Source: a virus
Lineage: Duplodnaviria; Heunggongvirae; Uroviricota; Caudoviricetes
Virus record (IMG/VR): IMGVR_UViG_2541047901_000004
Span: 1 to 9,606 of that record
Strand: one strand, 5' to 3'
DNA length: 9,606 nt
Position numbers and translations under genes: made by a program. Below, in pieces: positions 1,971 to 2,381 of this stretch (its first letter is position 1; each line of letters opens with the position of its first letter). The notes beneath the pieces are model-generated. The model did not search any database and was not told the DNA's origin. It saw only the letters and a list, made by a program, of their open reading frames with translations.

Positions 1971-2144
1971 TCAGTCAGATTCGGTTCGTTCCCAGGTTTG
2001 CAATGAGCGCTTTTCCCTGTACTCTTTAAGGAATTGCTCAAGGGCAAAAGCACATGGCGCGAATCTTTCTGATTCATGCTCTATCTTTCTGCGCCGTCTT
2101 TTCCGTGTCGGTGATAATGTTTTGGTCAATTCTTTATCGGTCAT
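1971..2144 (-). CDS. Hypothetical 57-aa Arg/Glu-rich protein, second gene of the - strand RHH operon
   Basis: Sequence: MTDKELTKTLSPTRKRRRRKIEHESERFAPCAFALEQFLKEYREKRSLQTWERTESD. The ATG at 2144 is preceded by AGGA with 8-nt spacing, while the ATG at 2159 has no SD. It lies 57 nt downstream of the RHH stop codon and is followed by the 1878-1906 terminator. No family was recognised. Confidence 0.5.
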   Translation of the reverse strand: MTDKELTKTLSPTRKRRRRKIEHESERFAPCAFALEQFLKEYREKRSLQTWERTESD

Positions 2145-2201
2145 TGTGTTGTCCTGCATAGCAATGCGCCGTAGTTACTCACACCACGGCGCTGGTGATG
2201 G

Positions 2202-2381
2202 TTATTCCTGCTCTTTGGCCTTTCGGCGCTGGCGGCGTTTGATCTCACCTTCAAGCGCCGAAACGATAAATTGCCCAGTGCTTTCGCCTTCTTCCTTTAA
2301 ATTTTCTACAGCGTCAGCTATTGCATGGGGTACTCGTGCCTCAAGTTTTTTGGATTTTCCATTAACTGCTTTCGTTGCCAT
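2202..2381 (-). CDS. Ribbon-helix-helix (Arc/CopG-like) DNA-binding protein, 59 aa; candidate repressor of the divergent control region
   Basis: Sequence: MATKAVNGKSKKLEARVPHAIADAVENLKEEGESTGQFIVSALEGEIKRRQRRKAKEQE. It fits the RHH pattern: an N-terminal beta strand (KKLEARVP), helix, G-x-S/T turn (GESTGQ), and a second helix (FIVSAL). There is a strong SD (AAGGAAA) 6 nt upstream of the ATG at 2381. The N-terminal 58 aa of the tracked 117-aa ORF are hydrophobic junk spanning the promoter region. Confidence 0.7.
   Translation of the reverse strand: MATKAVNGKSKKLEARVPHAIADAVENLKEEGESTGQFIVSALEGEIKRRQRRKAKEQE

Follow-up and report, generated by a model that had tools for sequence, protein, structure and literature searches.

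Two open reading frames (ORFs) on the minus strand of an Escherichia coli island, lying between alpA and the replication genes, are probably the maintenance (immunity) operon of a Gram-negative phage-inducible chromosomal island (PICI). The first of them encodes a 59-aa ribbon-helix-helix (RHH) protein, which would repress the operon that carries the Icd-like and primase genes and would also regulate its own synthesis. We computed the coding status of both ORFs, the RHH fold, the geometry and covariation of three operator-like boxes, the openness of a long frame on the opposite strand, and the coupling of its start codon to the upstream gene.

The window, by which we mean the whole 9,606-nucleotide stretch that was analyzed, is an island situated between yljB/cspD and clpS in E. 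coli. Its genes follow the order integrase (1–1239), alpA, Icd-like, DUF4222, D5-type primase (3295–5049), ssb, a ClpP-protease/capsid fusion, and a DUF1441 protein. Judged by its gene content, this order is the layout of a Gram-negative PICI. The alpA gene (1623–1859, plus strand; PF05930, E 7.8e-16; PGAP places the start at 1650) encodes a protein of the activator/excisionase type and lies upstream of the control region considered here. DNA resembling positions 1600–2800 is present in 1679 of 5426 complete E. coli genomes. The pair formed by the RHH and 57-aa proteins also occurs in the model Gram-negative PICI EcCICFT073, where it is annotated by RefSeq and accompanied by a 1299-nt open frame on the plus strand.

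In the published description, Gram-negative PICIs are transcribed rightward only and activated by AlpA, with no identified repressor (Fillol-Salom et al. 2018; PMC6092414), and AlpA-dependent induction as published needs no repressor of the kind proposed here (PMC6092414). For some PICIs, eta and immunity RNAs of the C4/isrK type have been discussed, an antisense protein repressor being absent from that account (Barcia-Cruz et al. 2023). YlcI/YnfO, the family to which the RHH protein belongs, figures in a 2026 survey as an accessory gene only, and our literature search found no paper that ties an RHH protein to PICI control.

Coding evidence for a leftward two-gene unit

By their conservation and by the kind of amino-acid replacements that they have accumulated, both minus-strand ORFs are a real leftward two-gene coding unit with its own terminator. 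The first gene is ylcI-like; it runs from an ATG at 2381 to a stop codon at 2202–2204 (2202–2381, minus strand) and encodes the proposed RHH repressor. The second runs from an ATG at 2144 to a stop codon at 1971–1973 (1971–2144, minus strand) and encodes an orphan 57-aa protein that matches phrog_21027 (E 6.7e-16). Shine-Dalgarno (SD) sequences stand 8 nt ahead of the first ATG (AAGGA, 2390–2394) and 7 nt ahead of the second (AGGA, 2152–2155); an alternative ATG of the small ORF, at 2159, is not kept in relatives. The unit ends in an intrinsic terminator (1877–1906, minus strand) whose 8-bp stem at 1887–1906 contains 7 G-C pairs and is followed by TTTGTTTTAT, with the T-run at 1877–1886; in the plus direction the hairpin has no T-run. 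This stem, with a variable loop, is kept in 7 of 12 E. coli loci, and a different terminator occupies the same place in two further loci. Two smaller elements lie within the operon. The 57-nt spacer between the genes holds a G+C-rich hairpin (2166–2192, minus strand) in which RNAalifold shows no compensatory changes, and the 3′ untranslated part contains a Chi site (GCTGGTGG; 1954–1961, plus strand) that is kept in 10 of the 12 compared E. coli loci and present in two copies in three loci.

An earlier note on this DNA had described an opposite-strand two-gene operon with good SD sequences and a terminator of its own, and the description stands in all three respects: both ORFs lie where it had placed them, match families, are conserved, and show conservative replacements in the minus frames. 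Comparison with related islands, which the note had suggested, bears the pair out as well. Twelve diverged E. coli loci have the small ORF, in which amino-acid identity falls as low as 54%. In all 12 it begins exactly 57 nt past the stop codon of the RHH gene and retains its ATG and SD sequence, and the indels across loci are all in frame. Third codon positions coincide in this overlap phase, and thus dN/dS separates the strands poorly (0.17 versus 0.34). We therefore scored the conservativeness of replacements with BLOSUM62 as the means of separating the strands. Mean scores in the minus frames were +0.08 for ylcI and +0.77 for the core of the small ORF. By comparison, the overlapping plus frame scored −0.96 in the ylcI region and −1.23 in the region of the small-ORF core, as poor as noncoding frames. 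Since replacements are conservative in the minus frames only, selection on protein sequence acts on the minus strand.

It is highly improbable that the minus-strand ORFs are unexpressed shadows of a real, long protein gene on the plus strand, an idea that is easier to entertain for the 57-aa ORF than for ylcI. Such a reading can draw on the coincidence of third positions just mentioned, on the plus frame being open and selected (see below), and on the annotation of the window's own genome, in which PGAP leaves the small ORF out and calls a plus-strand pseudogene instead. However, the replacement scores speak against it, as do the ATG, the SD sequence, the exact spacing, and the in-frame indels of the small ORF in its 12 loci. 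The small ORF is, moreover, annotated in EcCICFT073 and several other genomes. YlcI is predicted confidently to have the RHH fold, and members of its family occur in lambdoid prophages of K-12, where the frame antisense to ylcI of DLP12 is open for 270 nt only. On the plus strand, the N-terminal 210 residues of the long ORF match no protein family.

The two-gene unit, which we take to be real, is not alone on its strand. The earlier note had held it to be the only credible minus-strand coding in the window, and this needs correction: PGAP annotates a second minus-strand CDS at 6400–6573, and a conserved structured RNA is predicted on the minus strand at ∼2504–2582.

The RHH protein, its putative operators, and the orphan partner

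The product of the first gene matches phrog_949 (E 6e-23) and belongs to the YlcI/YnfO family NF041551, with 61.9 bits versus a cutoff of 30 (E 4.2e-17) over model positions 1–42 of 42. Its AlphaFold model, built from 29 homologues (pLDDT 86.9), has an extended N-terminal segment and then two helices, which is the strand-helix-helix arrangement of about 45 residues that characterizes the Arc/MetJ/CopG fold. Pfam contained no match for either the RHH or the 57-aa protein, a PDB sequence profile search with the RHH alignment returned no match, Foldseek comparison of the RHH protein with the PDB gave nonsignificant E-values only, and neither protein had a tblastn match among 50,697 phage records.

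RHH proteins of the Arc/MetJ/CopG type bind repeated operator sites as dimers, by inserting a two-stranded sheet. Within the 199 nt that separate ylcI from icd, there are three exact copies of GTGGCTGACA, a 10-bp box, at 2403, 2448, and 2473. Box O1 (TGTCAGCCAC; 2403–2412) abuts a leftward −10-like hexamer, TATACT, at 2412–2417 (2403–2417 together, minus strand). The other two fall on a rightward promoter-like site (2443–2482, plus strand) composed of a −35 at 2443–2448 (TTGACG) and a −10 at 2466–2471 (TAGCAT): box O2 (2448–2457) lies in its spacer and box O3 (2473–2482) lies over the expected transcription start.

This arrangement recurs in the operator comparison, which covered 16 loci from eight genera whose RHH gene is of the YlcI type. 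In most of them, three boxes of the GTG-N5-CAC type stand at about −31, −76, and −101 from the ylcI ATG, and a few loci differ in one box. In 14 of the 16 loci (8 genera), a rightward −35, TTGAC(G/A), stands at +61 or +62 relative to the ylcI ATG, and a TAnnnT hexamer follows 16–18 nt after it; the spacer is taken up by box 2, and box 3 comes just after the −10. The leftward TATACT-type hexamer that abuts box 1 is also conserved. The rightward −10 matches at only 3–5 of 6 positions, and a search for a good −35 for the ylcI promoter found none.

Across the eight genera, the sequence of the box covaries with residues 11–16 of the RHH protein, the position of the DNA-contacting strand in RHH proteins. 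Thus, KKLEAR goes with TGTCAGCCAC (E. coli, Xenorhabdus, and Proteus), QT[VL]AAR with GTGTTGAACAC (E. coli and Yersinia), KRFDVR with GTGTCGGACAC (Salmonella), QALKAR with GTGTGGCCCAC (CFT073), QSVTAR with GTGTCTTACAC, and TQLASR with GTGCTTAGCAC. The boxes are laid out as expected for a self-regulating repressor that turns off a divergent promoter; we infer both DNA binding and repression. A repressor had been among the options raised by the earlier note, and it is this option that gains comparative support from three operator-like boxes covarying with the RHH β-strand in eight genera. In five genera, the YlcI gene holds the same place, antisense between alpA/BRO/AntA and the genes from icd to primase. 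From these comparisons, the RHH gene and its operators behave like an exchangeable immunity cassette, and the small ORF goes with the conserved flank rather than with any one partner gene.

The relation of the small ORF to the RHH gene bears directly on another option from the same note, namely that the pair is a type II toxin–antitoxin system stabilizing the island, with the RHH protein as antitoxin and autorepressor and the 57-aa protein as toxin. We consider this very unlikely. Systems of this type are recognized by a known toxin family, constant co-occurrence and co-evolution, an antitoxin extension, and overlapping or abutting genes, and none of these features is seen here. In four genera, Yersinia, Proteus, Xenorhabdus, and Serratia, ylcI stands alone at the same position and the downstream frames are filled with stops. 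Elsewhere the RHH gene has been swapped: in three loci (L009, L011, and L014), the small ORF follows, with the same 57-nt spacer, an Arc-like RHH gene whose product scores only 20 bits on the YlcI model. The two genes, 57 nt apart, neither overlap nor abut. The 59-aa RHH protein has a 9-residue tail past its fold and lacks a toxin-binding extension, the prediction for the small protein is a single helix, and Pfam, NCBIfam, and PADLOC yield no match to a toxin family. Finally, the operators span a divergent promoter as well as the operon's own. On these grounds we set the toxin–antitoxin option aside in favor of the repressor.

The 57-aa protein itself consists of a variable basic N-terminal tail and one long helix, with the conserved core EHExERFAPCAFxLExFLKEY. 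Its dN/dS is 0.17 in the core, 0.49 in the basic N-terminal part, and 0.64 in the C-terminal part. For the 62-aa form, AlphaFold predicts a disordered N terminus and a single helix at residues 29–61 (pLDDT 71). The only family matches are phrog_21027 and 31 E. coli protein clusters. The earlier note had recognized no family for it, and this is confirmed by an exhaustive HMM search of 1.84 billion representative proteins, which gave 9 matches, 8 of them members or relatives of its own family; the ninth, a repetitive 1141-aa protein, was spurious. A pattern scan for the small protein through one genome per species found Shigella flexneri only. The small ORF follows YlcI alleles of 47%–100% identity and also Arc-like RHH genes. 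We picture its product as a lineage-specific accessory protein, probably not a toxin, that would be made together with the repressor. Its action would most likely depend on the invariant amphipathic helix, and its partner would be a protein or an RNA.

Two more specific roles for this protein can be weighed. It could be an effector that acts on the helper phage or the host, in interference or sensing, and rides on a constitutive repressor transcript. We hold this to be rather unlikely. Its lineage specificity and its independence of the preceding RHH allele or family are typical of satellite accessory cargo, and its expression would be expected in the quiescent state, when defense functions are useful; against this, neither PADLOC nor the phage records contain a match. 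Alternatively, in what is a quite unlikely scenario, it could bind the sense and antisense RNAs of the control region through an arginine-rich motif in the manner of lambda N or Rom. The sequence TRKRRRRK at its N terminus, ahead of the helix, invites this idea, as do the conserved candidate antisense RNA nearby and the hairpin just upstream of the small ORF. However, the arginine run is not conserved, being replaced by KTNREHEN in L011 and PEKQHEK in P0105, the N-terminal part has the dN/dS of 0.49 given above, the spacer hairpin lacks covariation, and similarity to N or Rom is absent from every search.

The open frame opposite the operon and a candidate antisense RNA

An eta-like ORF of 304 aa (1870–2784, plus strand) starts 10 nt after the alpA stop codon, with GAGG upstream, and runs antisense through the whole leftward operon to end in an Icd/Kil-like domain. 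Its last 48 codons encode the Icd-like domain NF033153 (E 1.9e-18, residues 256–299), and phrog_6196 matches from about 2506. Nested in frame within it is a short Icd/Kil-like ORF (2581–2784, plus strand) that has a GAGG SD sequence of its own, matches NF033153 (E 3.1e-19), and is called by PGAP. This frame had earlier been dismissed as a long spurious plus-strand ORF, a judgment that we reverse: its 3′ end is a real Icd-like gene, its layout is that of eta, and from ATG 1870 onward it appears to be kept open by selection.

In the window, the long frame has zero stops versus 22–23 in the other plus frames. In 12 E. coli loci it is stop-free over 891–1821 nt, with 15–47 stops in the other plus frames; the breaks are a frameshift just before icd in L013 and an early end in L009, which carries an Arc-like RHH gene. 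Opposite the YlcI homologue, an open plus frame is also found in Yersinia (1254 nt), Proteus (921 nt), Serratia (810 nt), and Xenorhabdus (621–666 nt), and it is absent in Enterobacter, one Salmonella context, and degenerate Pectobacterium loci. A chance estimate from raw stop density proved too optimistic and was discarded once the minus-strand proteins were held fixed: given those proteins, the openness of the plus frame is unremarkable (P 0.46 and 0.78). Our argument is therefore limited to segments outside them. The segments used, which lie outside both minus-strand genes and the short icd and measure 318–872 nt each, contain 0 stops versus a mean of 8–20 in the other plus frames, and for every one of the 11 loci examined, which represent five genera, shuffling gave P0 ≤ 0.0015.

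The start of the long ORF is coupled to the gene upstream. In P4, Yersinia, Proteus, and Serratia, its ATG overlaps the stop codon of that gene (ATGA); in the window (ATG 1870) and most E. coli loci, the ATG lies 8–19 nt downstream and is preceded by a G-rich SD sequence. These coupled start codons, together with the segments outside the minus-strand genes, make the case that the plus frame has been under selection. The lack of an N-terminal family, taken with the radical replacements in this frame, suggests that it was the frame that was selected and not the protein.

It is useful to compare this region with that of P4. There, translation of eta prevents transcription termination, so that an upstream promoter reads through, and the nested short form is Kil; the eta ORF also contains an internal promoter and the CI immunity RNA (PMC10111431). 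The equivalent P4 ORF (8168–8767) starts at the vis stop codon, and NF033153 matches P4 Eta with E 1.2e-20. The window likewise has a long ORF that begins beside the alpA stop codon, has NF033153 as its C-terminal Icd/Kil domain, and contains a nested in-frame short ORF, so that two marks of a P4-type eta/kil region, the start at or next to the alpA/vis stop codon and the C-terminal Icd/Kil domain with its nested ORF, are in place. In both, an immunity determinant (a candidate in the window) and an internal promoter lie inside the long ORF. In contrast, a CI/C4-type immunity RNA with seqA-type targets on the same strand was not found. Immunity in P4 is conferred by CI RNA from the same strand, whereas the window would have a protein repressor operon opposite the long ORF, plus a cis-antisense RNA distinct from it. 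When the two long ORFs were compared by pairwise BLAST, the result was not significant, and the link to eta is made by the shared domain HMM and the architecture. The region is a novel version of the P4-type immunity arrangement. By analogy with P4, the open frame without amino-acid constraint is consistent with translation of the long ORF suppressing Rho-dependent termination.

The separate RNA is a candidate cis-antisense small RNA running from about 2582 to 2504 (2504–2596 on the minus strand with its extended −10, TGGTATAAT, at 2588–2596). It would begin opposite the icd ATG and would cover the start codon and SD sequence of the short icd-like gene. Its predicted structure has two domains and ends in a terminator hairpin and a U-run. 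The structure comprises 23 pairs, 12 of them with compensatory changes, and 96.7% of cells are paired, a level reached in 0 of 500 shuffles; slid controls gave 35%–48%. The minimum free energy is −35.9 kcal/mol (z −5.35), and frequent G-U pairs favor the minus strand. The −10 (GGTAnnnT) does not vary among genera, including those in which the icd codons that it overlaps encode other amino acids.

In Rfam, the best match of this candidate was SymR (RF01809), at 23.7 bits versus a gathering score of 61, which rules out membership and leaves a resemblance in architecture only. The candidate aligns to the full SymR model, positions 1–77. Like SymR, which belongs to the SymE/SymR type I toxin–antitoxin system, it would begin beside the start codon of a small ORF that may be toxic and would overlap the SD sequence of that ORF; it differs in having an Icd/Kil-like target in place of SymE. 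The examples of P1 and P4 would lead one to expect an RNA of the C4/CI type upstream of icd. The Rfam search did not find one: neither C4 nor isrK RNA matched at E ≤ 1 in the window or at E ≤ 10 over 2380–2640.

Proposed control of the island

We propose the following mechanism. The RHH protein would bind the three 10-bp boxes O1, O2, and O3 and, in the quiescent island, would keep the replication operon silent. It could do so at O2, in the spacer, and at O3, over the start, of the rightward promoter that would drive the icd-like, DUF4222, and primase genes. At O1, which abuts the ylcI −10, it would limit its own synthesis. When a helper phage turns on alpA, a read-through transcript would pass through the long ORF, as in P4, and ribosomes on that ORF would keep Rho off the transcript, so that the replication genes are reached. 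Transcription reading through from alpA would also collide head-on with the repressor operon. From sequence, we infer DNA binding and repression, the Rho shield and the collision, and any role of the small protein.

A stronger form of this proposal is possible but doubtful, and we put it forward tentatively: ∼0.9 kb of the island may serve as a convergent switch in which both strands are used. In the rightward direction, translation of the eta-like ORF would have the sole purpose of carrying ribosomes across the control region and excluding Rho, a role that would explain why the frame is conserved and its amino acids are not. Leftward, the same DNA would encode the RHH repressor, the orphan partner, and an RNA antisense to the start of Icd/Kil. 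Read-through driven by AlpA would then circumvent the repressor and also silence it through collision and antisense pairing, thereby committing the island to induction.

The proposed repressor operon can be compared with several known systems. Phage P22 immI combines the RHH repressors Mnt and Arc with the sar antisense RNA and ant. The window differs in its putative target, which is a satellite icd/primase operon and not an antirepressor, and in that its cassette is nested inside an eta-like ORF and has three GTG-N5-CAC-type boxes; no sequence homology between the window RHH protein and Mnt or Arc is claimed. YlcI (DLP12) and YnfO (Qin) of E. coli K-12 belong to the same NCBIfam family, NF041551, as the window RHH protein, and ylcI of DLP12 is likewise a small gene transcribed opposite to its neighbors. 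However, the K-12 genes lie beside terminase genes in lambdoid prophages, without icd, and at DLP12 ylcI the three-box control region was not found and the long antisense frame is absent. Finally, the Stl/Rpr master repressors of Gram-positive PICIs (SaPIs) resemble the proposed repressor in being encoded divergently from the replication module (PMC6092414). Stl is larger and unrelated, and it is inactivated by a bound helper-phage protein, whereas the known induction route here is activation of alpA (PMC6092414).

These observations may be relevant in several ways. First, the region is a well-controlled natural case of a long antisense overlap, in which protein sequence appears to be selected on one strand and mere openness on the other. 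Second, our analysis supplies material for tests, in the form of box/allele pairs from eight genera and of stop-codon positions that are silent on the opposite strand. Third, a candidate repressor with allele-specific operators and a candidate antisense RNA, both inside an ORF of eta layout, would tie the control of PICIs to the immunity logic of P4. More broadly, the repressor reading would address the open question of how such islands stay silent. If the convergent switch is true, Gram-negative PICIs have a protein-based immunity system, one that would have been overlooked because these islands have been described as transcribed in one direction.

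An eta-like frame antisense to the leftward operon

The long plus-strand ORF at 1870–2784, antisense to the leftward operon, had been dismissed as spurious in the earlier note. Its layout and its conservation do not bear this out. The ORF has the same layout as eta of the satellite phage P4, with a start adjoining the alpA stop and an Icd/Kil domain at its end, and its frame is kept open across five genera with no constraint on the amino acids that it encodes. Some islands carry, in their version of this long ORF, an Ash domain (PF10554) fused to the Icd-like domain on its upstream side, as at 3200–3767 (+; phrog_29966) in L008, one of the related E. 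coli loci that we compared with the window.

The position of the gene for YlcI, the proposed island repressor, is mosaic among islands. It is occupied by 59-aa YlcI alleles of several specificities, by a 101-aa YlcI carrying an inserted helical segment (loci L007, L008, L011, and L013), or by an Arc-like RHH protein that has its own GTAATTAC-type repeats (L009, L011, and L014). Two cassettes lie in tandem in L008 and L011, and the plus-strand frame is open nonetheless in the islands having this arrangement.

Candidate RNA elements

A candidate cis-antisense small RNA is encoded on the minus strand at 2504–2596, opposite the start codon and Shine–Dalgarno sequence of the icd-like gene, and has a conserved extended −10 element. 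Its covariation is strong, comprising 12 compensatory pairs, and the observed values were reached by none of 500 shuffles. In architecture the candidate resembles SymR, with a score under the Rfam threshold. A G+C-rich hairpin (2166–2192, −) lies within the invariant 57-nt spacer separating ylcI from the small ORF. This hairpin might serve for attenuation or as a site of RNA processing; a search for covariation supporting it found none.

Repeats, a putative second minus-strand gene, and Chi sites

Elsewhere in the window, an 80-nt direct repeat of 95% identity has one copy directly downstream of ssb (6068–6147) and the other directly downstream of the capsid gene (8604–8683). Both copies are G+C-rich and flanked by T-runs. 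PGAP annotates a second minus-strand CDS at 6400–6573, encoding the 57-aa hypothetical protein WP_000973802.1, which overlaps a plus-strand ORF at 6460–6666.

The Chi sequence GCTGGTGG is present in 11 copies in the 9.6 kb of the window (113−, 885+, 1954+, 2693−, 3204+, 4342+, 5642+, 5668−, 7719+, 7891−, and 9361+), compared with 0.29 expected from shuffles. The model Gram-negative PICI EcCICFT073 contains 10 Chi sites in 10.8 kb, and P4 contains zero. The chromosomal flanks local to the island are fairly Chi-rich too. This abundance of Chi sites may protect replicating satellite DNA against RecBCD.
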